Below, in pieces: positions 1,732 to 10,760 of a DNA stretch of 39,734 nucleotides; the stretch's first letter is position 1, and the number at the start of each line of letters is the position of its first letter. Position numbers and translations under genes: made by a program. The notes below the pieces were generated by a model. The model had not been told where the DNA came from. It searched no databases and saw only the letters and a list, made by a program, of their open reading frames with translations. Source of the stretch: Escherichia phage vB_EcoM_SHAK7854; the sequence record OR594182. One strand, given 5' to 3'.

Positions 1732-1825
1732 CTGAATGAATAACTATAGGTGAAAGCTGCATGAATAAGCAGTTAGTAACCTATAGTTACTACCAGTCTA
1801 ACATACTGTTTTACAAGGAGTTTGG

Positions 1826-1848
1826 ACTTAACTATCACTATAGGGAAG
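1826..1848 (+). promoter_or_regulatory. phage RNAP promoter (phiOR-like, downstream of gene 19)
   Basis: ACTTAACTATCACTATAGGGAAG; core CACTATAGGGA identical to T7 class III -8..+3. Confidence 0.7.
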
Positions 1849-2028
1849 ACCCCCGGTTACTTATAGTATTACTGTAGTGAATATACATATGCAGACTTTA
1901 TGCAAGGCCTTAGGAGGCAGACTCCGAGTTCTTACCTAAGTCTTGCACCGATGGAAGGAGGGTGATATTAATCATAATCCCTCCAATACAGATAGTCACC
2001 GACCATAGATACAGGAGGTATGTAGCAT

Positions 2029-2187
2029 ATGGCAAAGACCAAAGCTGTACTTAAAGCTCTGGCGACCAATCGAGCTACATACAGGTTTCTTGCTGCTGTT
2101 CTACTTGCTGCTGGCGCTACTGCTGGAAGTCAGTGGGTCGGGTGGGTCGAGACTCTCGTATGTTCTCTGGTCTCTCAGTGTAATTAA
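2029..2187 (+). CDS. hypothetical small hydrophobic protein (52 aa) in the gene 19.5 position
   Basis: ATG with AGGAGG 10 nt upstream; below the ORF-track size cutoff; no homology recognised. Confidence 0.3.
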   Translation: MAKTKAVLKALATNRATYRFLAAVLLAAGATAGSQWVGWVETLVCSLVSQCN

Positions 2188-2344
2188 CGCCGTAATGGTA
2201 ACAATCAACGAAAGCAAGACCTAAGGTCAGTTCATAGCTGACGCTACTCTACTGACCTTAGCTACTGTAGTCAAGGACTTTAGGTAACACCTTAATAGAA
2301 GCTCACTTAGGGTCATCCTACTTATTGGTCTATCCTAGTGTCGC

Positions 2345-2390
2345 CTGACCTACGGTCCTTGACCTACAGTGGCTGTGGCCTACAGTAGTG
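2345..2390. repeat. short ACCTAC(A/G)GT direct repeats on the left flank of the terminal repeat
   Basis: three copies of ACCTACAGT-like motif; analogous to the CCTAAAG arrays next to the T7 terminal repeat. Confidence 0.55.
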
Positions 2391-2423
2391 ACGATGAGTT
2401 TTGGACCAAAAGTTTGAGACCAC

Positions 2424-2606
2424 ATCTCACACTTCAAGAACCTCAAGTCTCCCCATAGGCCTCTTTCAGTCCAGACCAAAGGCCCTACCCCAGTCTATCA
2501 TAAGGTTGGACCGATGGTCAAGACTTCAGGTCAACGATAGGCTGAGGCTATGGCTTAGGGAAGGACGATAGGTTGGGACTATTGGTCTGCCTCTGAGTCC
2601 CTATCT
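2424..2606. repeat. direct terminal repeat, copy 1 (183 bp; right genome end)
   Basis: exact tandem duplicate of 2607..2789; begins ATCTCACAC and ends GTCCCTATCT, resembling the T7 terminal repeat termini. Confidence 0.8.
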
Positions 2607-2789
2607 ATCTCACACTTCAAGAACCTCAAGTCTCCCCATAGGCCTCTTTCAGTCCAGACCAAAGGCCCTACCCCAGTCTATCATAAGGTTGGACCGATGG
2701 TCAAGACTTCAGGTCAACGATAGGCTGAGGCTATGGCTTAGGGAAGGACGATAGGTTGGGACTATTGGTCTGCCTCTGAGTCCCTATCT
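2607..2789. repeat. direct terminal repeat, copy 2 (183 bp; left genome end)
   Basis: identical to 2424..2606 by direct reading. Confidence 0.8.
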
Positions 2790-2814
2790 GTATAGTGATA
2801 TAGTATAACATTAC

Positions 2815-2940
2815 GTCCTACACCTACAGTCTAACTAACCTACAGTCATTGACTCCTGCTGTACCTACAGTCACCGACCATCGGTAAAGCCATTACCTAC
2901 AGTCAAAGACCTACAGTCAAAGACCTACAGTCTAACGACA
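2815..2940. repeat. array of about six ACCTACAGTC short direct repeats on the right flank of the terminal repeat
   Basis: CCTACAGTC recurs at about 2823, 2838, 2863, 2895, 2910, 2925. Confidence 0.6.
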
Positions 2941-3043
2941 CAAAGCTATAGACTTAAGGTCTAATACATGTTAGTCAAAGACTATATCCTCTTAGTCACT
3001 ATGGGCCGACGATAGCTTAATCAATATTATTTAAGATTACCTA

Positions 3044-3072
3044 TTGACTACAGGTCCAGACTATGGCTTAAT
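3044..3072 (+). promoter_or_regulatory. candidate host sigma70 early promoter (T7 A1-like position)
   Basis: TTGACT, 17-nt spacer, CTTAAT; surrounding sequence resembles the T7 A1 region. Confidence 0.4.
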
Positions 3073-3184
3073 AGCTTCCGTCAACACGACACGGCAACAA
3101 CCGGATAGTGAAGACGCCGGGTCATCCCGGTTAAGTAGACAGCCTGATAAGTCATACGAACAACAGGCAGATGACAGAAAGTAG

Positions 3185-3214
3185 TTGACAAGATGTACCG
3201 ACTTAAAGTAGTAT
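3185..3214 (+). promoter_or_regulatory. candidate host sigma70 early promoter (T7 A2/A3-like)
   Basis: TTGACA, 18-nt spacer, TAGTAT, followed by GTACCACAT as at T7 A3. Confidence 0.5.
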
Positions 3215-3341
3215 GTACCACATCAACACGAAACAACGGTGACGACCAACACTGAAACGGTCTACCTGAAGTCCTCTGACTGAAGGGAATGCTCTTTAAC
3301 AATCTGGATAAACTCTTAATGTGCGCCGACAGTGATTAACT

Positions 3342-3390
3342 ACAGGGTCTTTGAGTCTACATCTGAAGGCCCTGACTGATAGCCACTAAC
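3342..3390 (+). repeat. early intergenic hairpin element type A, copy 1 (candidate RNase III site)
   Basis: GTGATTAACTACAGG...CCTGACTGATAG element with internal inverted repeat; precedes ORF 3398. Confidence 0.5.
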
Positions 3391-3397
3391 TTAACGG

Positions 3398-3652
3398 ATG
3401 GACACTATGAAACACTTAAGCACAATCACTAATCGCAATGAAGTATTCGTGAACACTAAAGGTTATGCGTGGATTCAGCTTAAAGAGATGAGAGGAGCGC
3501 GTCACCGTGTGGTAGTTCGCAAGGTATCAAGCAAGCCGTTCAGCAACTACAGCGTAGATACTATGCGTATAGACAACGAGACTTACCTGATAGACTCGCA
3601 GATAACCGTGCGTCCTACAGCGGGCATCTCAGCTCCTTATTTCGCTAACTGA
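3398..3652 (+). CDS. hypothetical early protein (84 aa)
   Basis: first ORF of the early region, downstream of the candidate host promoters; no homology recognised. Confidence 0.55.
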   Translation: MDTMKHLSTITNRNEVFVNTKGYAWIQLKEMRGARHRVVVRKVSSKPFSNYSVDTMRIDNETYLIDSQITVRPTAGISAPYFAN

Positions 3653-3654
3653 GG

Positions 3655-3705
3655 GTGATTAACTACAGGTCGTTAGACTGATAGCGGCCTGACTGATAGT
3701 CACTA
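3655..3705 (+). repeat. early intergenic hairpin element type A, copy 2
   Basis: GTGATTAACTACAGGTCGTTAGACTGATAGCGGCCTGACTGATAGTCACTA; CAGGTC/GGCCTG stem. Confidence 0.55.
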
Positions 3706-3725
3706 GCAACCTAAGAGGATTCATT

Positions 3726-4004
3726 ATGAGACTGAACAAAGCTACAGCAGAAGCCTTTCGCAAGGAGCTTGAATCAAGATTATTGTGTGGAGTGGCGGAA
3801 GGAGCCGCTCGATATAAAGAGAATGGTCTAACGTTCAAGCGCTTTATGTGGGATTGCTATCACGGAGTGGGCCATAAAAAGTCGCAGGAAATAATCACCA
3901 GCAACAATGCGGAAGTGCAAGTGATAGGAGGATACATGGCTAACGTGAAGGATTCACACATAGAGACAATGCTTAAGAATGCACTTAAAGATGTAGCCTA
4001 CTAG
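3726..4004 (+). CDS. hypothetical early protein (92 aa)
   Basis: ORF with AGAGGA RBS 7 nt upstream. Confidence 0.6.
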   Translation: MRLNKATAEAFRKELESRLLCGVAEGAARYKENGLTFKRFMWDCYHGVGHKKSQEIITSNNAEVQVIGGYMANVKDSHIETMLKNALKDVAY

Positions 4005-4054
4005 TGATTAACTACAGGTCGTTAGACTGATAGCGGCCTGACTGATAGTCACTA
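4004..4054 (+). repeat. early intergenic hairpin element type A, copy 3
   Basis: identical to copy 2 over about 50 bp. Confidence 0.55.
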
Positions 4055-4084
4055 ACACATAATTAACTTTGAGAGGATATAACT

Positions 4085-4588
4085 ATGGAACGTAATGCTA
4101 ACGCATACTATGAGCTGCTGGCTGCAACCGTTGAGGCATTTATCGAGCGTATTCAGTACGACCACCTGACTCAAGATGATGACTACAGCGATGCGCTGCA
4201 TGAGGTCGTAGACGGTCAGGTTCCACACTATTACCACGAGATTTTTACGGTGATGGCTGCTGATGGTATAGACCACGAGTTCGAAGACTCTGGGCTGATG
4301 CCTGAAACCAAGGACGTAACGCGTATCCTACAAGCTCGCATCTATGAGGCGCTTTATAACGATGTGTCTAATAGCTTGGATGTAGTCTGGTTTGAGGATG
4401 AAGAGGCAGAAGAAGAGGATGAATATTGGGTAGTTGACGCTAAAACAGGCGCAATAATTGTGCAAGCTGTAGCTCTTGAGGTCGCTACTGCATGTGCCAA
4501 TGTTAACTATGCGGCAGGTCGCCACCTGAAGGTGGAAGACATCAATGATAACGTAGTGTTCGACCCTGCGGCTGAGGACTGCGAGTGA
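4085..4588 (+). CDS. ocr: Ocr-like DNA-mimic anti-restriction protein (T7 gp0.3 homolog) with about 50-aa C-terminal extension
   Basis: [43 protein letters not shown] matches T7 Ocr; acidic tail present; 167 aa versus 117 aa in T7. Confidence 0.85.
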
Positions 4589-4733
4589 TGGTAACTTATG
4601 GCCTCTGCCAGCACCACGTCACTAACGCCCGGCTTATGGTCAAGACCGGGCAGTTAGACCACGATTGGGCTATGCGTCTCTTGAAAGTGGTCTACAGGAG
4701 ACGCAAGCGTATACACGACAGTTTACACGCTAA

Positions 4734-4782
4734 GTGACAGACTACAGGTCATCAATGCTGGTGGCCTGACTGATAGTCATTA
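4734..4782 (+). repeat. early intergenic hairpin element type A, copy 4
   Basis: GTGACAGACTACAGGTCATCAATGCTGGTGGCCTGACTGATAGTCATTAAC. Confidence 0.5.
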
Positions 4783-4800
4783 ACAACTGAGAGGGAAGAT

Positions 4801-5028
4801 ATGAACACAATCACTGGTGCCATAACCAAAGGTTTTCGAGCAATTTTCGGTGAAACGCAAGAAGTATGCACCAATCATAAATTCGTACTTTCTTGCGTAG
4901 CAGGTGACGAGTTTGACGGGTTCGATAAACTGGTGGTTTGCGACCATTGCGGACAAGAGGCTATCCAACACTCAAACGGTAAATTTGAATTAATAGACGA
5001 TAGCCTTACAGAAGGAGACGGCGAGTAA
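4801..5028 (+). CDS. hypothetical early protein (75 aa) with four cysteines and acidic C-terminus
   Basis: GAGAGGGAAG RBS; C-x8-C...C-x2-C spacing suggests a small zinc-binding fold. Confidence 0.55.
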   Translation: MNTITGAITKGFRAIFGETQEVCTNHKFVLSCVAGDEFDGFDKLVVCDHCGQEAIQHSNGKFELIDDSLTEGDGE

Positions 5029-5092
5029 CCTAAATAAGCAGGAGAGAACCAAATCATAGCTTGACCATAACACTGACGTGATGGTACTGAGT

Positions 5093-5135
5093 GATAGACG
5101 AGAGGTCATCGACTGATAGGTGGCCTCAAAGATTA
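5093..5135 (+). repeat. early intergenic hairpin element type A, divergent copy 5
   Basis: GAGGTCATCGACTGATAGGTGGCCTC retains the AGGTC/GGCCT stem. Confidence 0.4.
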
Positions 5136-5160
5136 CCACTTACATTGATAGGAGTTAACT

Positions 5161-5265
5161 ATGAGCACTGCAATCATCTGGACTATCTCAGGCTTCGTAG
5201 CGTGGGGAATGTTTACTCTAGTCTGCAAACTACCGGTCCTTACTCAACTGTTATGGGGCTTATGA
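5161..5265 (+). CDS. hypothetical small hydrophobic peptide (34 aa)
   Basis: GGAG RBS; MSTAIIWTISGFVAWGMFTLVCKLPVLTQLLWGL; stop overlaps next ATG (ATGA). Confidence 0.3.
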   Translation: MSTAIIWTISGFVAWGMFTLVCKLPVLTQLLWGL

Positions 5266-5465
5266 CTATGAGTATCGCACTATTGATAGCCATAGGCTAT
5301 GGACTTATCGCCTACGTGCTGGTGAGAGACATCAACAAGGCACGTAAAGTCTATAAATTCAACTATGTACGTATGGTCCGCTGGACTGTACGTCAACCTA
5401 ACGGACGATTCCTGCGCAATTTAGCGAACGTCTGGGATATAGCAACTCTTGGGAGCAAACTGTAA
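5262..5465 (+). CDS. hypothetical early membrane protein (68 aa)
   Basis: internal Met of ORF-track 5091..5465 chosen as start; N-terminal hydrophobic helix then basic tail. Confidence 0.4.
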   Translation: MTMSIALLIAIGYGLIAYVLVRDINKARKVYKFNYVRMVRWTVRQPNGRFLRNLANVWDIATLGSKL

Positions 5466-5791
5466 TGAACAAGTCATACGGGATTAATCTGGTACACTCT
5501 ATGGACGCAGAAATGAACATGTTAAGCCTACTGGCTACCGGGTATCGTCACGGAACGTCAAGTCACACCGCACGTCAACAGCAGGAGCGGGACCGTGTAC
5601 TACAGGCGCGACTCCGGGCAGAGGGCCATAAGTCCGAACTGATGTGTCTGGCGTATGGCGGACGACCGATCACTGACGATGGTAAACTTCTGGTATCAGG
5701 CTGGAAGGCGATAGACCAACGGTCAACCATCAAGCACACGACTCATGGTGACTTCAGTCATCTTCACGCTAACCCACTGATATGCAAGTGA
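5465..5791 (+). CDS. hypothetical early protein (108 aa)
   Basis: TAATG coupling to upstream ORF; occupies the T7 0.7 position but is far too short to be the kinase. Confidence 0.5.
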   Translation: MNKSYGINLVHSMDAEMNMLSLLATGYRHGTSSHTARQQQERDRVLQARLRAEGHKSELMCLAYGGRPITDDGKLLVSGWKAIDQRSTIKHTTHGDFSHLHANPLICK

Positions 5792-5796
5792 TTCTG

Positions 5797-5819
5797 ACTT
5801 AACTATCACTATAGGACTC
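5797..5819 (+). promoter_or_regulatory. phage RNAP promoter immediately upstream of the RNAP gene
   Basis: CTTAACTATCACTATAGGACTCA; +1 GGA. Confidence 0.6.
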
Positions 5820-5888
5820 AAGGTCTAAGACTCCAAGTGAAAGACCAAAGAGACTTTAAGTGAAAGACTAATAACAAGGACTTTAAGT

Positions 5889-8570
5889 ATGAGCGTCATC
5901 TCTATTGACAAACACGACTTCTCTGATGTGTCGAACGCCATTGAGCCGTTTAACCTGCTGGCTGACCACTACGGGCAAGACCTTGCAGTCAAACAGCTTC
6001 AGCTTGAGCATGAGGCCTACACTGAAGGTGAGCGACGTTTCATCAAGAACCTTGAGCGTCAGACCGAGCGAGGGGAACTGGCAGACAATCAGGTCGCCAA
6101 GCCTTTGATGCAGACTCTGGTTCCTAAGATTGCGCAAGCCGTCAAGGAGTGGCACGAAGGTCCAGACGGGAAGCTGTCAACCTCACGTCCGAGCGTAGCG
6201 TTCACCATGTTAAGCACTGAAGAGAAGGCCGTCAAGGACCGCTCTCTTCGCATCTCCTGCGAGTCTGCTGCGGTTATCATACTGAAGGTCATCCTCTCCA
6301 AGCTGGTCAAGCCTGAAGGTATACCGATTACACCGATGGCCTCCGCGATAGGTCGCACACTTGAGGATGAAATCCGATTCGGTCGCATTCGTGACAAGGA
6401 GAAGGAGCACTTCAAGAAGGCGATAGCTGATAACCTGAACAAGAGAGCCGGGGCATCATACAAGAAAGCCTACATGCAAGCGGTCGAGACATCCATGCTG
6501 GAGCAAGGCCAACTAGAAGATGCGTGGGGAACTTGGAGTCCGACCGAGGCTGTCCACGTTGGAATCAAGATGCTGGAGATTGTCATACAGTCAACACAAC
6601 TGGTCGAGCTTAAGCGTTACGGTGCTGGCAATGCAGCGGCTGACGTTGAGATGGTCCACCTGTCAGACTTCTGGGTCAAGAAGATGGCACAACGAGGATT
6701 CAGCCTTGCGGGTATCGCCCCAGTCTACCAGCCTTGCGTCGTTCCACCTAAGCCGTGGACTGGTGTCGTAGGTGGTGGGTACTGGGCCAAAGGTCGCAGA
6801 CCGTTACCATTGATTCGCTTAGGGTCTAAGTCTGCGGTAGCACGTTATGAAGACGTATACATGCCTGAAGTCTATGACGCTGTGAATATCATCCAGAATA
6901 CACCTTGGAAAGTGAACAAGAAGGTATTGGACGTGGTGAACAAGGTCGAGAAGCTGAACAACACGCCTATTGATGACATCCCTCAGATGGAACCGCTGAA
7001 GCCTGAGGACTATGCGGGTGAGACTGAAGAAGAACTCAAGGCATGGAAGAAGGCTGCTGCTGGTATCTATCGCCGCGAGAAGGCCAGACAGTCACGAAGA
7101 TTGTCACTGAGCTTTATCGTCAACCAAGCGAACAAGTTCTCTCAGTTCAAGGCCATCTGGTTCCCGTATAACATGGACTGGCGCGGTCGCGTCTACGCTG
7201 TGCCGATGTTCAACCCTCAGGGTAACGACATGCAAAAGGGTCTTCTGACTCTGGCAGTCGGTAAGCCTATTGGTGCTGATGGTTTCAAATGGCTGAAGGT
7301 CCACGGTGCAAACTGCGCGGGTGTCGATAAAGTCACCTTCGAGGAGCGTATCAAGTGGGTGGAAGATAACCACGACAACATCATGGCTGCTGCCAAGGCA
7401 CCGATGGATAGCATTGAGTGGTGGGGCAAGTTAGACTCTCCGTTCTGCTTCCTAGCGTTCTGCTTCGAGTATGCTGGCGTAATGCACCACGGCTTGTCTT
7501 ACTCCTGCTCGCTGCCGATAGCGTTCGATGGGTCCTGCTCTGGGATTCAGCACTTCAGCGCTATGCTTCGCGACCACATCGGTGGACATGCAGTAAACCT
7601 GACGCCATCCGGTAAGGTCCAAGACATCTACCGCATCGTGTCTGACCGCATTGAGGAGGAGCTTAAAGTCCTACTGGTTAACGGTACGGACAACGAGATG
7701 GTAACTCACGAGGACAAGAAAACTGGTGAGATTACCGAGCGTCTCAAGCTGGGGACACGAGAGCTTGCCCGTCAGTGGCTGACCTACGGTATGTCACGAA
7801 AGGTCACTAAGCGTTCGGTCATGACTCTGGCCTACGGGTCGAAAGAGTACGGCTTCGCAGACCAAGTTTACGAGGACATCGTGATGCCAGCGATTGACTC
7901 AGGGTCTGGCGCTATGTTCACTGAACCAAGCCAAGCATCTCGCTTCATGGCTAAGATGATTTGGGAAGCTGTGAGTGTGACCGTAGTTGCTGCGGTTGAC
8001 GCGATGAAATGGCTTCAGGGTGCTGCCAAGCTGCTTGCTGCTGAAGTGAAGGACAAGAAGACTGGAGAAATCCTGAAGCCTTGTCTTCCGGTACACTGGG
8101 TCACACCTGATGGTTTCCCTGTCTGGCAGGAATACCGCAAGAAGGACACCACTCGTCTGAACCTGATGTTCTTAGGGTCATTCAACCTTCAGCCTACCGT
8201 CAACAAAGGCACGAAGAAAGAGCTGGACAAGCACAAGCAGGAGTCAGGCATTAGCCCGAACTTCGTCCACTCACAAGATGGTAGCCACCTCCGCAAGACT
8301 GTAGTCCACACTCACCGAAAGTATGGCGTGATGTCATTCGCAGTGATTCACGATAGCTTCGGGACCATCCCGGCTGACGCTGAGTATCTGTTCCGTGGAG
8401 TCCGTGAGACGATGGTAGAGACTTACCGCGATAACGATGTGCTGCTTGACTTCTACGAGCAGTTTGAATACCAGCTTCATGAAAGTCAGCGCGACAAGTT
8501 GCCTGAGCTTCCGAAGAAAGGTAAACTAAATATCGAAGACATCTTGTCTTCAGACTTTGCATTCGCTTAA
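5889..8570 (+). CDS. single-subunit DNA-directed RNA polymerase (T7 gp1 family)
   Basis: 893 aa, collinear with T7 RNAP (PFNLLADHYG, WFPYNMDWRGRVYAV, SPFCFLAFCFEYAG, AFDGSCSGIQHFSAMLRD, HDSFGTIPADA, C-terminal FAFA). Confidence 0.97.
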   Translation: MSVISIDKHDFSDVSNAIEPFNLLADHYGQDLAVKQLQLEHEAYTEGERRFIKNLERQTERGELADNQVAKPLMQTLVPKIAQAVKEWHEGPDGKLSTSRPSVAFTMLSTEEKAVKDRSLRISCESAAVIILKVILSKLVKPEGIPITPMASAIGRTLEDEIRFGRIRDKEKEHFKKAIADNLNKRAGASYKKAYMQAVETSMLEQGQLEDAWGTWSPTEAVHVGIKMLEIVIQSTQLVELKRYGAGNAAADVEMVHLSDFWVKKMAQRGFSLAGIAPVYQPCVVPPKPWTGVVGGGYWAKGRRPLPLIRLGSKSAVARYEDVYMPEVYDAVNIIQNTPWKVNKKVLDVVNKVEKLNNTPIDDIPQMEPLKPEDYAGETEEELKAWKKAAAGIYRREKARQSRRLSLSFIVNQANKFSQFKAIWFPYNMDWRGRVYAVPMFNPQGNDMQKGLLTLAVGKPIGADGFKWLKVHGANCAGVDKVTFEERIKWVEDNHDNIMAAAKAPMDSIEWWGKLDSPFCFLAFCFEYAGVMHHGLSYSCSLPIAFDGSCSGIQHFSAMLRDHIGGHAVNLTPSGKVQDIYRIVSDRIEEELKVLLVNGTDNEMVTHEDKKTGEITERLKLGTRELARQWLTYGMSRKVTKRSVMTLAYGSKEYGFADQVYEDIVMPAIDSGSGAMFTEPSQASRFMAKMIWEAVSVTVVAAVDAMKWLQGAAKLLAAEVKDKKTGEILKPCLPVHWVTPDGFPVWQEYRKKDTTRLNLMFLGSFNLQPTVNKGTKKELDKHKQESGISPNFVHSQDGSHLRKTVVHTHRKYGVMSFAVIHDSFGTIPADAEYLFRGVRETMVETYRDNDVLLDFYEQFEYQLHESQRDKLPELPKKGKLNIEDILSSDFAFA

Positions 8571-8585
8571 CAGGAGGAGAAGTAT

Positions 8586-8816
8586 ATGTCAATGAAACTT
8601 GTAGCACACAACAGGACATACAACGATGGGTCGGGACGTTGCCATGTAGAGCTGACTTATAGGGATTTAGTCATTCTCCGAGACAGATTACAAGAGGGTG
8701 TGACTGGGTGGATTCAACCTAACGAGTACAACCTTATAGCTTCGATTGATGAAGTGCTTAACGCGTGGATGGAAGACGAGCGCACTCAGTATCCATCATT
8801 CCCTATGATTAAATAA
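8586..8816 (+). CDS. hypothetical protein (76 aa), no T7 counterpart between gene 1 and 1.1
   Basis: CAGGAGGAG RBS. Confidence 0.55.
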   Translation: MSMKLVAHNRTYNDGSGRCHVELTYRDLVILRDRLQEGVTGWIQPNEYNLIASIDEVLNAWMEDERTQYPSFPMIK

Positions 8817-8826
8817 GGAGAGAGTT

Positions 8827-9042
8827 ATGAAATTTGCACACAAGCAGTCTGGCGTTAAGGGCGGGACTCAAATCGTGACCGTAACAGAACACAACGGCAA
8901 GGGTCTGGTGAAGACCACGGTCATCCCTACAGAGATGTCAAAGCAGCTTAACGTCCCATTCAAGACACTCGTCTATCTTGTGGAATCCAGCCACGAGAAA
9001 TACCTGAAAGACGCAGTGTCCAAGCTGGAGCAGGCCAAATGA
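8827..9042 (+). CDS. hypothetical protein (71 aa), no T7 counterpart
   Basis: AAGGAGAG RBS. Confidence 0.55.
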   Translation: MKFAHKQSGVKGGTQIVTVTEHNGKGLVKTTVIPTEMSKQLNVPFKTLVYLVESSHEKYLKDAVSKLEQAK

Positions 9043-9116
9043 CAGACATACAGTTACTGGCCCTGTGGCTGGGAGCACTCGCAGTATTCACTTTAATCCA
9101 ACGCAGAAGAGGTTAA
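9039..9116 (+). CDS. hypothetical hydrophobic peptide (25 aa)
   Basis: ATGA overlap with upstream stop; MTDIQLLALWLGALAVFTLIQRRRG. Confidence 0.25.
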   Translation: MTDIQLLALWLGALAVFTLIQRRRG

Positions 9117-9117
9117 C

Positions 9118-9140
9118 CCTAAACTATCACTATAGGATTA
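9118..9140 (+). promoter_or_regulatory. phage RNAP promoter (phi1.1-like)
   Basis: CCTAAACTATCACTATAGGATTA. Confidence 0.7.
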
Positions 9141-9182
9141 GACTCAAGGTCATGACTCAAAGTCGTGGCCTTCATGATTAAC
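9138..9182 (+). repeat. hairpin element type B (candidate RNase III site, R1.1-like)
   Basis: TTAGACTCAAGGTCATGACT...AGTCGTGGCCTT imperfect 12-bp stem. Confidence 0.5.
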
Positions 9183-9213
9183 CCTAAATAAACACTACTG
9201 GAGATTTAACCGT

Positions 9214-9393
9214 ATGTATCAGAACACTATCAACTTCGAGCGCATCCGTGAACGTCAGCAGACTGAAGGTTACATCCCTAAGGGCCGCAAGCTGAACAAG
9301 ACTAAACGTGGAGGAGGTATCAAAGGTGCTTTCCGTAACGCTGAAGGTAAAGACTCTATGGTTAACCAAGAGAAATACTTCATAGGAGCGTAA
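9214..9393 (+). CDS. gp1.1-like small basic protein (59 aa)
   Basis: KGRKLNKTKR shared with T7 gp1.1; below ORF-track cutoff. Confidence 0.6.
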   Translation: MYQNTINFERIRERQQTEGYIPKGRKLNKTKRGGGIKGAFRNAEGKDSMVNQEKYFIGA

Positions 9394-9396
9394 GCC

Positions 9397-9648
9397 ATGA
9401 GTAAACGTTGGTTATTCGACGCATCCACGAGCCAGTGGTCAGCGTTAGGCCGGACTCACCGCGAGATGAGTGAGGCAGGACTTGATGTCCTAATGGATTA
9501 CTCGCCGTGCCACGGAAAAACTCTGGTCAGAGTAATTGAAGCAGATGGTGGGAGGCTTCTGGTCTCCAGAGAATTTACCGAATATGAAATATTTAGCTGT
9601 GAGCAATGGTGCTTACAACAATTGAACGATTATAGGAGCTGGAAATAA
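9397..9648 (+). CDS. gp1.2-like protein (T7 gp1.2 is a dGTPase inhibitor)
   Basis: position and size (83 aa) match T7 gp1.2; C-terminal DYRSWK similar to T7 KDWK end. Confidence 0.5.
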   Translation: MSKRWLFDASTSQWSALGRTHREMSEAGLDVLMDYSPCHGKTLVRVIEADGGRLLVSREFTEYEIFSCEQWCLQQLNDYRSWK

Positions 9649-10712
9649 TGACTACGACTATTAAAACTAACCCGCACCGCGCTGTAGATTACTCTGAGTC
9701 AGGAGTTACGAAAGCACTGGCAGCAGCCGGGTCGCTGGAAGCTGAAGTGAAGTATGATGGTGTGCGGCTGAACCTACCGGTCTTCCCTACTGGTGAGACT
9801 CAATGGTTGAGCCGTGAGTCCAAGCCTCTTCCAGCCCTTGAGTGGCTATCAGTCCGGACCAACATCGACAACATCGTGGAAGACCAACAGATGGCTAGTG
9901 ACTGGCGATGGTTCCTGAAGCAGGCTGGATACGAAGGCACTGGCCTGATGATTGACGGTGAGGTCATGGTAAAGGGTGTAGACTTCAACACATCCTCAGG
10001 TCTTATACGAACGAAGTACGTCAAGTCTAAGAACTACGACTTCCACGATGGTGACTGGGACCTGAAGTCAAAGACTATACCATTCAGACTGGACCCTGAG
10101 CACATCAAGGTAATCGTCTACGGTGTCATCGACCTCAACGTCATCACCGACCCGAAAGCCGAAGGTCCTATCCATAGCGTCACACGCCTGAAGGCGGAAG
10201 CTATCGTCCCTCTCCTCCAGAAATACTTCCCGGAAATCGACTGGGTTCTGTCTGAGTCACACACGGTCTATGACCTTGAGTCGCTCAACTCCCTGTACGA
10301 ACAGAAGCGTCTGGAAGGACATGAGGGTCTGGTAGTCAAGGACCCGCTGGGTAAATATAAGCGTGGCAAGAAGTCTGGCATGTGGAAAATGAAGCCTGAG
10401 GAGACCATAGACGGGACCGTGTGTGGCCTCGTGTGGGGTACTCCTGGTAAGGCCAACGAAGGTAAGGTGATTGGCTTCGAGGTGCTGCTTGAGGATGGCA
10501 TGGTGGTTAACGCCTGTGGTCTGTCTGAAGAACAGAAGGACGAGTTTACGGAAGCCTGTAACACTGATACATATATTCTCGGTGGAATCAATCCGTACGA
10601 AGGATGGCAGTGTGAAGTACTCTTCATGGAGCGGTTCCCAGATGGATCCCTTCGTCACCCTAGCTTCAAGTGCTGGCGTGGAACGGAAGATAACCCAACC
10701 GTTAAGAGTTAA
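9648..10712 (+). CDS. ATP-dependent DNA ligase (T7 gp1.3 family)
   Basis: IKTNP, adenylation motif KYDGVR, EGHEGLVVKDP, KRGKKSGMWKMKPE, SLRHPSF. Confidence 0.93.
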   Translation: MTTTIKTNPHRAVDYSESGVTKALAAAGSLEAEVKYDGVRLNLPVFPTGETQWLSRESKPLPALEWLSVRTNIDNIVEDQQMASDWRWFLKQAGYEGTGLMIDGEVMVKGVDFNTSSGLIRTKYVKSKNYDFHDGDWDLKSKTIPFRLDPEHIKVIVYGVIDLNVITDPKAEGPIHSVTRLKAEAIVPLLQKYFPEIDWVLSESHTVYDLESLNSLYEQKRLEGHEGLVVKDPLGKYKRGKKSGMWKMKPEETIDGTVCGLVWGTPGKANEGKVIGFEVLLEDGMVVNACGLSEEQKDEFTEACNTDTYILGGINPYEGWQCEVLFMERFPDGSLRHPSFKCWRGTEDNPTVKS

Positions 10713-10722
10713 CTAAACGTCA

Positions 10723-10760
10723 ACCCAGTGGTCTTCGGACTGCTGGGTTTCTTTGCTTTG
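10723..10760 (+). terminator. rho-independent early terminator (TE-like) after ligase
   Basis: CCCAGTGG-TCTTCGGA-CTGCTGGG stem-loop followed by TTTCTTTGCTTTG. Confidence 0.65.

Follow-up and report, generated by a model that had tools for sequence, protein, structure and literature searches.

The interval between the RNA polymerase gene (gene 1) and gene 1.1 of Escherichia phage vB_EcoM_SHAK7854 probably holds three real, separately translated small genes, here called ORF-A, ORF-B, and ORF-C, which extend the gene 1 transcription unit of this Kayfunavirus. The best inference is that the products are early proteins directed at the host, ORF-C being a putative peptide of the inner membrane. The analyzed DNA (record OR594182; 39,734 nucleotides, hereafter the window) is a K1F-like, T7-family Kayfunavirus genome, syntenic with its relatives. 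All coordinates refer to the window, and all features described lie on its + strand.

Organization of the Block

The three ORFs directly follow gene 1 (5889..8570), which encodes a T7-type single-subunit RNA polymerase of 893 aa and is labelled RNA polymerase in all relatives. ORF-A (8586..8816; ATG start) specifies an acidic protein of 76 aa (pI 5.2) and is led by the Shine-Dalgarno sequence AGGAGG (8572..8577), 8 nt before its ATG. ORF-B (8827..9042; ATG start) specifies a basic protein of 71 aa (pI 9.65), with AGGAG (8816..8820) 6 nt before its ATG. ORF-C (9039..9116) encodes the 25-aa peptide MTDIQLLALWLGALAVFTLIQRRRG; its ATG (9039-9041) overlaps the TGA of ORF-B (9040-9042) in an ATGA, and the last part of ORF-B contains a weak Shine-Dalgarno-like GGAG (9027..9030), separated by 8 nt from the ORF-C ATG. 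The original prediction, made from the sequence alone, had described exactly this arrangement of two frames with ribosome-binding sites and a coupled hydrophobic peptide, and had placed it where T7 holds only promoters and an RNase III site. Both statements stand. Between genes 1 and 1.1 the T7 record shows nothing but promoters phi1.1A and phi1.1B; an R1.1 RNase III site at this place is known from work on T7, and an R1.1 counterpart is annotated in the T3 record. The A-B-C block is therefore extra relative to T7. None of the three ORFs was found in the gene 1-gene 1.1 interval of the T7, T3, K11, and BA14 records, so none is required for the basic T7-type cycle. The phi1.1 promoter and R1.1 hairpin are retained just downstream of the block (9113-9186), and on sequence comparison the block reads as an insertion between the gene 1 stop codon and phi1.1 in which the T7 elements are kept, not replaced.

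Coding Evidence

The length of an ORF is by itself no proof of coding, 94 ORFs of at least 20 aa being present in 6.5 kb; ORF-A, ORF-B, and ORF-C rise above chance because conservation and selection are confined to their own frames. In-frame pN/pS was 0.27 for ORF-A, 0.29 for ORF-B, and 0.26 for ORF-C, against 1.1-1.75 in the two other frames (1.1 for ORF-C). All three are thus under purifying selection, in their own frame only. That they are chance frames or decaying, unexpressed remnants is very improbable, even though many spurious ORFs in the window are as long, one relative has a frameshifted ORF-A, and another a truncated ORF-B. Beyond the selection on all three, strong or adequate ribosome-binding sites precede each, ORF-B is conserved to 44% identity and ORF-A to 34%, each at a fixed position, and ORF-B yields a confident fold model. 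In 02_vB_Eclo_IJM, where ORF-B is truncated, the polymerase and ligase genes are fragmented too, and the broken copy therefore points to assembly errors. The frameshift in vB_Eco_1RS, which splits ORF-A into two annotated CDS, is, we suspect, a sequencing error.

The original prediction had assigned the genes no function and had proposed homology and structure searches. These were run, and no sequence or fold match assigned one: PHROGs returned families of "unknown function" only, Pfam and NCBIfam gave none for the three proteins, Pfam and PHROGs gave none for their divergent relatives, and searches of PDB sequences returned nothing significant. Family searches otherwise produced only sub-threshold noise (DUF6296, DUF3117, and ThsA_Macro; E 0.01-0.1). 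It had also named homologs of known function at the same position as the outcome that would count against it. Homologs proved widespread, and where ORF-A and ORF-B are annotated the products are always called hypothetical; these two are thus already catalogued, and ORF-C is rarely annotated. The published literature yielded no paper on the genes and no Ribo-seq or proteomics data on them; the one transcriptome paper found concerns an unrelated phage.

ORF-A Is a Sporadic Cassette

ORF-A matches PHROG 28104 over its full length (E 7.2e-53; residues 1-76 of 76). It occurs in 39 phage records at 85-100% identity, that is, in 39 of the 219 records that carry ORF-B, and is found alongside both ORF-B clades. 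A duplicated ribosome-binding site marks the ends of the cassette, the left copy being the AGGAGG of ORF-A and the right copy the AGGAG of ORF-B. An exhaustive HMMER search returned four true remote relatives (P0130, P0131, P0133, and P0134), which also match PHROG 28104; with 34-49% identity, these remote relatives occupy the same slot, always directly after gene 1. A fifth protein from that search, the 1640-aa repeat protein P0132, is regarded as a false positive inflated by its repeats. Paralogy of ORF-A and ORF-B was rejected (hhalign probability 3%), and the AF2 model of ORF-A is poor (pLDDT 64.7) and unreliable. ORF-A would be an acidic soluble protein on a cassette that may be gained and lost between the two ribosome-binding-site copies, which suggests a probable role in takeover or counter-defence that is specific to the host or strain. 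The description of the whole interval as an accessory block consequently holds for one of its members: ORF-A alone is accessory within the genus, and ORF-B and ORF-C are genus core genes.

ORF-B Is Not Gene 1.1

ORF-B is present in 219 records across the genus and in essentially all hits outside Klebsiella; relatives were not found among 185,579 bacterial and archaeal species genomes. It matches the full length of PHROG 8082 (E 4.7e-42; residues 1-66 of 66), as does, at 9e-34 for the same family, the homolog in Zappy, which is 45% identical to it.

GenBank records of K1F, EcoDS1, and Dev2 name the ORF-B homolog "gp1.1". Taken at face value, this naming would make ORF-B the gene 1.1 homolog of the phage and the block a displaced T7 gene plus noise, a reading that is almost certainly wrong. 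The true T7 gp1.1 homolog is the downstream neighbor, a 59-aa ORF (9214..9393) that matches Pfam PF08200 (E 6e-11; 43 bits, cutoff 21), whereas ORF-B has no Pfam match at E <= 1. In BLASTP against T7 gp1.1 the 59-aa ORF aligned at E 7e-6 over a KGRKLNKTKR motif, but ORF-B gave no alignment at E <= 100. Membership of ORF-B in the T7 gp1.1 family is refuted by these results, and the label was assigned from position only.

The ORF-B model is confident and combines a beta-meander of three strands with two helices, one short and the other, at the C terminus, long. Searched against BFVD, it returned only uncharacterized phage proteins; the fold search otherwise retrieved LptE (RlpB), along with weaker matches resembling secretion chaperones. 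LptE, whose fold packs two helices on a beta-sheet, is the lipoprotein that plugs LptD, the LPS translocon of the outer membrane. ORF-B is less than half its size and 12% identical to it and, unlike that lipoprotein, lacks a signal peptide, lipobox, or cysteine, its N terminus being polar (MKFAHKQSGVKGG). Neither Pfam nor NCBIfam placed ORF-B in the LptE/RlpB family at E <= 1, and a profile search of PDB sequences found no match at E <= 10. The two-layer beta/alpha sandwich is a common fold, seen also in secretion chaperones and in IclR and StAR domains, and the resemblance was judged to reflect this shared fold, not membership of the LptE or a secretion-chaperone family. ORF-B, a basic two-layer beta/alpha protein retained by all members of the genus, probably binds a host macromolecule.

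ORF-C Is a Conserved Frame for a Hydrophobic Peptide

ORF-C is the most conserved piece of the block, intact in 71 of 72 loci and present in 175 phage records. Across 47 distinct B..C regions it overlaps ORF-B by 4 nt (ATGA or GTGA) and is 25 aa long throughout (26 in the L029 form), and the 15 nt before its start contain GGAG, GAGG, or, at a few loci, a variant differing by one base such as GGGG. The peptide has a 15-residue hydrophobic core, LLALWLGALAVFTLI (the best 15-residue window, mean Kyte-Doolittle 2.51), with D3 on its N-terminal side and QRRRG at the C terminus. No variant has lost D3, the RRR, or the hydrophobic core, not even the L029 form, which is 52% identical, has a GTG start and an in-frame one-codon indel, and retains the QRRRG end. 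These features fit a small single-pass membrane protein, for which one hydrophobic segment able to enter the bilayer and flanking charges that set its orientation are expected. At 15 residues the core is short for spanning a bilayer.

ORF-C is also found in a second genus, in the Caroctavirus Citrobacter phage CR8, where an unrelated 45-aa ORF replaces ORF-B; the CR8 copy differs by nine synonymous and five conservative codon changes, and its upstream flank is unrelated. No such frame was found between gene 1 and the first promoter in T3, K11, and BA14, which have no room for it because the promoter begins 7-11 nt after the gene 1 stop. The ORF-C pattern was likewise not found in the 185,579 bacterial and archaeal species genomes. 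ORF-C is unannotated in most records, and a spurious promoter-spanning ORF is sometimes called in its place. The "DUF2842" label carried by the IMM-002 copy was rejected, this family being absent from the Pfam matches even at E <= 10; the only Pfam match of that variant is DUF5325 at E 0.17, far below the cutoff.

The 78 bases of ORF-C might instead be conserved as DNA or RNA and go untranslated, for example by forming the upstream portion of a phi1.1 promoter or replication-origin region, supplying the gene 1.05 ribosome-binding site, or contributing to mRNA structure. Little variation is seen in the last ~25 bases (TTAATCCAACGCAGAAGAGGTTAA), third codon positions included; these bases hold the GAGG that relatives use as the gene 1.05 ribosome-binding site, and they abut the promoter, and part of the conservation in this 3' third therefore does not come from the peptide. 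The T3 primary replication origin is annotated in the same general region, and the omission of ORF-C from most records would also fit. Such a reading is nevertheless improbable, for the constraint is frame-specific (pN/pS 0.26 versus 1.1): of 74 distinct single-base variants, 41 are synonymous against an expected share of 26% (binomial P = 1e-7), an excess that appears in frame 0 and in neither other frame. Frame, length, and start are intact in the 71 loci, the indel of L029 is in frame and its many amino-acid changes preserve hydrophobicity and QRRRG, and 9 of the 14 codons changed relative to CR8 are synonymous. The sequence is conserved whether the promoter or gene 1.05 comes next, and it matches no Rfam family. 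Translation of ORF-C remains the favored reading.

Expression of the Block

Matches to the phage promoter consensus number 11 in the window, against 0 expected by chance. One of them, CTTAACTATCACTATAGGA (5798..5816; one mismatch), lies 73 nt upstream of gene 1. Another, the exact consensus CTAAACTATCACTATAGGA (9119..9137), begins 2 nt after the ORF-C stop and, aligned with the T7, T3, CR8, and K1F promoters, is the counterpart of T7 phi1.1A and T3 phi1.1; the ASO2B and EcoDS1 records annotate it as a promoter. It is followed by a stem-loop (9133..9186; -21.5 kcal/mol, z = -2.45) homologous to the T7/T3 R1.1 RNase III site, with ACTCAAGGTCA...GTGGCCTTyATGATTrACC conserved with T7 and the annotated R1.1 of T3. 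ASO2B annotates the hairpin at 9146-9172 as a rho-independent terminator, an assignment that was rejected: there is no T-run, the terminator scan did not flag it, and it aligns with R1.1 of T7 and T3. That scan found no terminator on the + strand from 1750 to 10229, and so none between the promoters at 5798 and 9119. A TE-like intrinsic terminator (10722..10749; a 12-bp stem followed by a T-run) after the ligase gene ends the early transcription unit of the block, and EcoDS1 has a TE terminator annotated at the same place. The early or middle timing originally proposed fits this map.

Because the A-B-C block lies after the gene 1 stop and ahead of the retained phi1.1 and R1.1 elements, it probably rides on the gene 1 mRNA, whose 3' boundary is probably the R1.1-like hairpin. 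As with the class I genes of T7, host polymerase would transcribe the block together with gene 1 from early promoters; phage polymerase would transcribe both from the promoter at 5798, and the mRNA would then be cut at the hairpin. On such a transcript ORF-A, ORF-B, and ORF-C would be made at the same time as the polymerase, within the first minutes after infection, ORF-C being translated by coupling to ORF-B.

Possible Role of ORF-C and Its Relation to ORF-B

Once released from the ribosome, ORF-C may insert into the inner membrane as a single-pass peptide; insertion would be post-translational, since the peptide is too short for co-translational targeting. The peptide is predicted to point its N terminus outward and to keep its RRR tail on the cytoplasmic side, and it may act on a membrane-located host target.

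Known holins are far larger than 25 aa. A holin or antiholin role for ORF-C was rejected, the gene lying next to gene 1 in an early/middle unit between the promoters at 5798 and 9119 with no adjacent lysis genes.

ORF-B and ORF-C could form one unit: ORF-B, acting in the cytosol as chaperone, partner, or antagonist, would hold or deliver the hydrophobic ORF-C in the manner of SecB or a type III secretion chaperone with a client, and the ATGA coupling would set the ratio of the two. This is unlikely. In CR8, ORF-C stands behind the unrelated 45-aa ORF and ORF-B is missing; the two ORF-C sequence types, GALAVF and AFLAVY, do not track the ORF-B clades, each occurring with any of them and showing no co-variation. 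The chaperone-like fold matches are weaker than that to LptE, and the fold is a common one. Stop/start codon overlaps are, moreover, common in T7-type genomes regardless of gene function. As the ORF-C types are untied to ORF-B clades and CR8 does without ORF-B, the coupling may reflect genome economy, not function.

A bolder, speculative proposal, to which we attach a low probability, is that ORF-C is an overlooked micro-protein common to Kayfunavirus and Caroctavirus. It would be synthesized alongside the phage RNA polymerase within the first minutes after infection, enter the inner membrane, and there inactivate or take over one particular membrane machine of the host; in Kayfunavirus, ORF-B would be its cytosolic partner or chaperone. 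If true, it might, for example, shut an entry route to competing phage genomes or block a membrane-acting abortive-infection effector.

Comparison With Known Systems

Genes 0.3 (Ocr), 0.4, 0.6, 1.1, and 1.2 of T7 are small genes around gene 1 that are RNase III-processed, dispensable for the core cycle, and host-acting where their function is known. The block resembles these class I and early class II accessory genes in that its members are small, led by ribosome-binding sites, and packed around gene 1, and the window has the T7 layout of promoter, R1.1, 1.1, 1.2, ligase, and TE. The resemblance is one of arrangement; no sequence or fold relationship of ORF-A, ORF-B, or ORF-C to the T7 accessory genes was found, and T7 has no coding sequence at the position of the block.

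The known occupant of the gene 1-gene 1.1 interval in T3, K11, and BA14 is the T3 gene 1.05 family (PF25755). None of the three ORFs matched PF25755, whereas EcoDS1 gp1.05, used as a positive control, did so at 4.6e-24. A 1.05 gene is missing from the window. In many of its Kayfunavirus relatives, EcoDS1, GW1, and SH5 among them, a 1.05-type gene directly follows ORF-C, chained 4-6 nt behind the stop of the latter; in T3, K11, and BA14, by contrast, a separate promoter, phi1.05, immediately follows gene 1 and serves gene 1.05.

In size range (19-50 aa), single hydrophobic helix, and orienting charged end, ORF-C is like the small inner-membrane peptides of enterobacteria, which include the type I toxins TisB, IbsC, ShoB, and DinQ (PMC3567139 for DinQ) as well as MgtS, AcrZ, KdpF, and YohP (reviewed in PMC12648545). 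Such peptides are inserted post-translationally, as ORF-C would have to be. No sequence similarity to them was found in Pfam or NCBIfam. ORF-C differs from these peptides in that it comes from a lytic phage, is coupled to the gene ahead of it, and is free of signs of an antisense-RNA locus: no antitoxin RNA or other Rfam family matched in 8400-9500, and no sigma-70-type promoter consensus lies on the opposite strand within the block. Likeness to the inner-membrane phage proteins that block superinfection or DNA entry, T4 Imm, HK97 gp15, and P22 SieA (PMC10883804; reviewed in PMC11436027), is a functional guess by analogy. These are much larger, some with several helices in the membrane, and have no homology to ORF-C.

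Implications

Capsulated and drug-resistant E. coli, Salmonella, Citrobacter, and Enterobacter are targets against which K1F-like phages are being engineered and applied, and the early genes of these phages decide which hosts can be taken over. The present analysis corrects a recurrently copied annotation, ORF-B not being gp1.1, and draws attention to a gene of 25 residues, conserved in two genera, that is missing from most records. Telling a mobile cassette, ORF-A, apart from the genus-core ORF-B and ORF-C provides three clean deletion targets for studies of host range and counter-defence. What is known of T7-type phages is not overturned by these genes, which add uncharacterized members to a familiar class of small early phage proteins.

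Identity of the Phage and Position of the Block

Between 8400 and 9400, the window is 92-96% identical over its full length to genomes of Kayfunavirus (K1F-like, Studiervirinae), the best DNA matches being EcoIv39_Milel, LNA5, HC12, LM33_P1, and EcoDS1. It opens within the large terminase gene (Pfam PF22530; 1-1731), followed by a phage promoter at 1827-1845, indicating that it represents a whole genome circularly permuted relative to the canonical T7-type map and the physical genome ends must fall at approximately 1.9-3.2 kb. Gene 1, encoding the single-subunit RNA polymerase, lies at 5889..8570 on the + strand. Just 5' of the gene 1 region, an early ORF at 5091-5465 (nested frame 5161-5265) specifies a hydrophobic stretch, MSIALLIAIGYGLIAYVLV, and then basic residues; a Pfam search with it gave no match, and it may encode another small early membrane protein, albeit with an ambiguous start codon.

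Three small frames follow gene 1 on the + strand: ORF-A (8586..8816, 76 aa), ORF-B (8827..9042, 71 aa), and ORF-C (9039..9116, 25 aa, MTDIQLLALWLGALAVFTLIQRRRG). AGGAGG lies 8 nt upstream of the ORF-A start, AGGAG 6 nt upstream of that of ORF-B, and a weaker GGAG 8 nt upstream of that of ORF-C, the ATG of which overlaps the ORF-B TGA as ATGA. Since 94 ORFs of at least 20 aa occur within 6.5 kb, ORF length by itself is no evidence, and conservation and selection were therefore tested on the loci of relatives (29 sequences including the window initially, 72 finally, drawn from GenBank phages, IMG/VR, metagenomes, and Logan assemblies). The in-frame pN/pS was 0.27 for ORF-A (1.1-1.6 in the other two frames), 0.29 for ORF-B (1.7-1.75), and 0.26 for ORF-C (1.1), with gene 1.1 as control giving 0.09 (1.9-3.0). 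The three ORFs are thus genes under selection, with ribosome-binding signals and a stop-start overlap; the original prediction of two ORFs of 76 and 71 aa and an ATGA-coupled 25-aa peptide held to the exact coordinates, with selection well above chance.

As had also been proposed, the corresponding T7 interval has promoters and no coding block, containing phi1.1A and phi1.1B only, while in T3, K11, and BA14 a promoter begins 7-11 nt after gene 1. In the window, the promoter at 9119 begins two bases 3' of the ORF-C stop, and the stem-loop 3' of it can be aligned both to T7 phi1.1A-R1.1 and to R1.1, the RNase III site annotated in T3. Comparison with these four phages indicates that the block was inserted between the gene 1 stop and retained phi1.1/R1.1 elements. 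A degenerate promoter-like sequence, TTAACCCTAAATAAACACTACTGGAGA (9178-9204), occupies the place of T7 phi1.1B, 3' of the R1.1-like hairpin; it has five mismatches to the 19-nt consensus (TATA to TACT), and the ribosome-binding site of gene 1.1 (GGAG) falls within it. Approximately half of the Kayfunavirus loci carry a T3 gene-1.05-type gene (PF25755, ~156-171 aa), absent from the window, between ORF-C and the phi1.1 promoter (2222-2692 in L001, the EcoDS1 locus; also L006, L008, L029, and others). Its ATG lies 4-6 nt past the ORF-C stop and its ribosome-binding site is a GAGG within ORF-C codons; some records start it further 5', within ORF-C in another frame.

Transcription

The consensus phage promoter CTAAACTATCACTATAGGA occurs in 11 copies against 0 expected. 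One copy, at 5798-5816 with a single mismatch, lies 73 nt 5' of gene 1, so that the phage polymerase may transcribe its own gene; T7, in contrast, has no such promoter at the equivalent position. The predicted transcript from this promoter opens with GGACUCAAGGUC, the motif that also opens the R1.1-like hairpin at 9135, and the local fold at 5814-5870 is not significant (z = -0.9). No terminator-like sites were found on the + strand across 1750-10229; a strong one lies at 10722, after the ligase gene, where EcoDS1 annotates the early terminator TE. Taken with T7 biology, this map suggests that ORF-A, ORF-B, and ORF-C share the gene 1 mRNA. This transcript would be made early by the host polymerase, and by the phage polymerase from the 5798 promoter, and would end at the R1.1 cut, such that the three small proteins are probably co-expressed with the polymerase.

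ORF-C, a Conserved and Largely Unannotated Micro-Gene

The 25-aa ORF-C frame was present at the same start position in 71 of 72 loci, the sole exception being a contig that ends too early, and tblastn located it in 175 phage records. Across 47 distinct B..C regions, the overlap with the ORF-B stop was always ATGA or GTGA, with GGAG, GAGG, or a near-variant no more than 15 nt 5' of the start. ORF-C is better conserved than ORF-B (88% vs 45% identity in phage Zappy); of the 74 single-base variants seen across 44 distinct sequences, 41 were synonymous vs 26% expected (P = 1e-7), with no synonymous excess in its other two frames. Even the most distant Kayfunavirus-like version (L029), which has a GTG start, an extra in-frame codon, and substitutions at around half of its residues, retains the hydrophobic core and QRRRG end. 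The last ~25 bases vary little, synonymous sites included; they include the GAGG used by gene 1.05 of relatives and lie directly against the promoter, so part of the conservation reflects overlapping signal. Two records (vB_EcoP-PM131, PM131_026; vB_Eco_1RS) annotate as a hypothetical protein, instead of ORF-C, a GTG-initiated 38-aa + strand frame (9065-9181) that crosses the phi1.1 promoter and R1.1 hairpin. This frame is almost certainly spurious, because pN/pS is ~1.1 in the frames overlapping ORF-C.

ORF-C (MTYLQLFALWMGALAVFTLIQQRRG) also occurs at the same place in Citrobacter phage CR8 (genus Caroctavirus), differing from the window by nine synonymous and five conservative codon changes, with unrelated DNA upstream. 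CR8 lacks ORF-B; an unrelated 45-aa ORF precedes ORF-C. This ORF (1364-1501 of L046 / L072), annotated '1.05', occupies the slot after gene 1, has no database matches, and overlaps the ORF-C start with its stop by one base. The universal coupling of ORF-B to ORF-C, and the chaperone-like structural neighbors of ORF-B, argue for a role for ORF-B as chaperone or partner of ORF-C, but this is unlikely given that CR8 keeps ORF-C without it and that ORF-C types show no correspondence to ORF-B clades. The CR8 arrangement shows that the slot 5' of ORF-C can be exchanged from one genus to another with ORF-C itself retained.

The hydrophobic core of the peptide spans 15 residues, with an acidic residue on the N-terminal side and three arginines at the C-terminal end; W10, Q21, R23, R24, and G25 are invariant. 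These features suggest an inner-membrane peptide. Under the positive-inside rule, ORF-C should be oriented with its N terminus out and C terminus in. Very small membrane proteins insert post-translationally, and 25 residues would allow no co-translational targeting, so insertion of the predicted peptide would have to follow this route.

ORF-C was absent from the bacterial genomes searched, has no family in Pfam or NCBIfam, and no mention of it was found in the literature. It is without annotation in K1F (NC_007456), EcoDS1, HC12, ASO2B, CR8, GW1, Zappy, and SH5; among the records read only IMM-002 annotates it, under a DUF2842 label that is unsupported. ORF-C is a micro-gene that two genera conserve and that annotation has largely missed.

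ORF-B and the gp1.1 Label

A tblastn search located ORF-B in 219 records, the most divergent at 44% identity; it always lies directly 3' of gene 1 or of ORF-A if present. Broken down by host genus, its counts match the DNA search everywhere but in Klebsiella, indicating that it is core to Kayfunavirus. With a pI of 9.65 the protein is basic; five of its lysines are invariant or nearly so, and H5, H56, and E57 are conserved. A confident AF2 model (pLDDT 93.8, 43 homologues) shows three long antiparallel strands together with one short helix and a long helix at the C terminus. A structure search with the model gave a hit to LptE, the outer-membrane LPS translocon lipoprotein; membership of that family was ruled out, as ORF-B has neither signal peptide nor cysteine, and the hit is read as reflecting a two-layer sandwich, a common fold. 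In BFVD, matches were confined to its own family and uncharacterized small proteins of other T7-supergroup phages, and no relatives occurred in 185,579 bacterial species genomes. ORF-B may bind a host macromolecule.

The K1F NC_007636, EcoDS1, and Dev2 records label the ORF-B homologue gp1.1. This is a positional label only, as ORF-B has no Pfam match and no BLASTP similarity to T7 gp1.1; it is the 59-aa ORF at 9214-9393 that matches PF08200 and T7 gp1.1. In the K1F, EcoDS1, and Dev2 records the true PF08200 homologue is called gp1.15, or gp1.1 a second time, and one K1F RefSeq entry (NC_007456) leaves genes 1.1 and 1.2 unannotated.

ORF-A, a Mobile Cassette

For ORF-A, tblastn matches were limited to 39 phage records (85-100% identity in every case), and an indexed protein search gave nine clusters. 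Exhaustive HMMER searching of 1.84 billion representatives added four remote relatives (34-49% identity), and IMG/VR locus L012 a fifth (47%). All lie directly 3' of gene 1, with an ORF-B homologue directly 3' wherever the contig continues. A further profile hit, P0132 (1640 aa, ~30 tandem repeats, KVAEVDKILAAYAGKEDTLMRDLHTSYNVP), was judged a repeat-inflated false positive, its E of 8e-14 being summed over nine stretches. Genomes without ORF-A read TAA-CAGGAGAGAGTT-ATG(ORF-B), and the window TAA-CAGGAGGAGAAGTAT-ATG(ORF-A)...TAA-GGAGAGAGTT-ATG(ORF-B); the cassette thus comprises the ORF and a second ribosome-binding site copy. At 88-89% identity, ORF-A was found beside both ORF-B clades (71-aa and 66-aa), indicating that it moves by recombination. 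It may represent a strain-specific takeover or counter-defense cassette.

Concluding Remarks

Both ORF-A and ORF-B have existing GenBank and PHROGs entries, with function given as unknown, in keeping with their description as early or middle genes of unknown function. The block belongs to a class familiar from T7-type phages, that of small early accessory proteins, and does not form a system of a new kind; the hidden ORF-C peptide and the corrected gp1.1 label are of use to specialists rather than startling.
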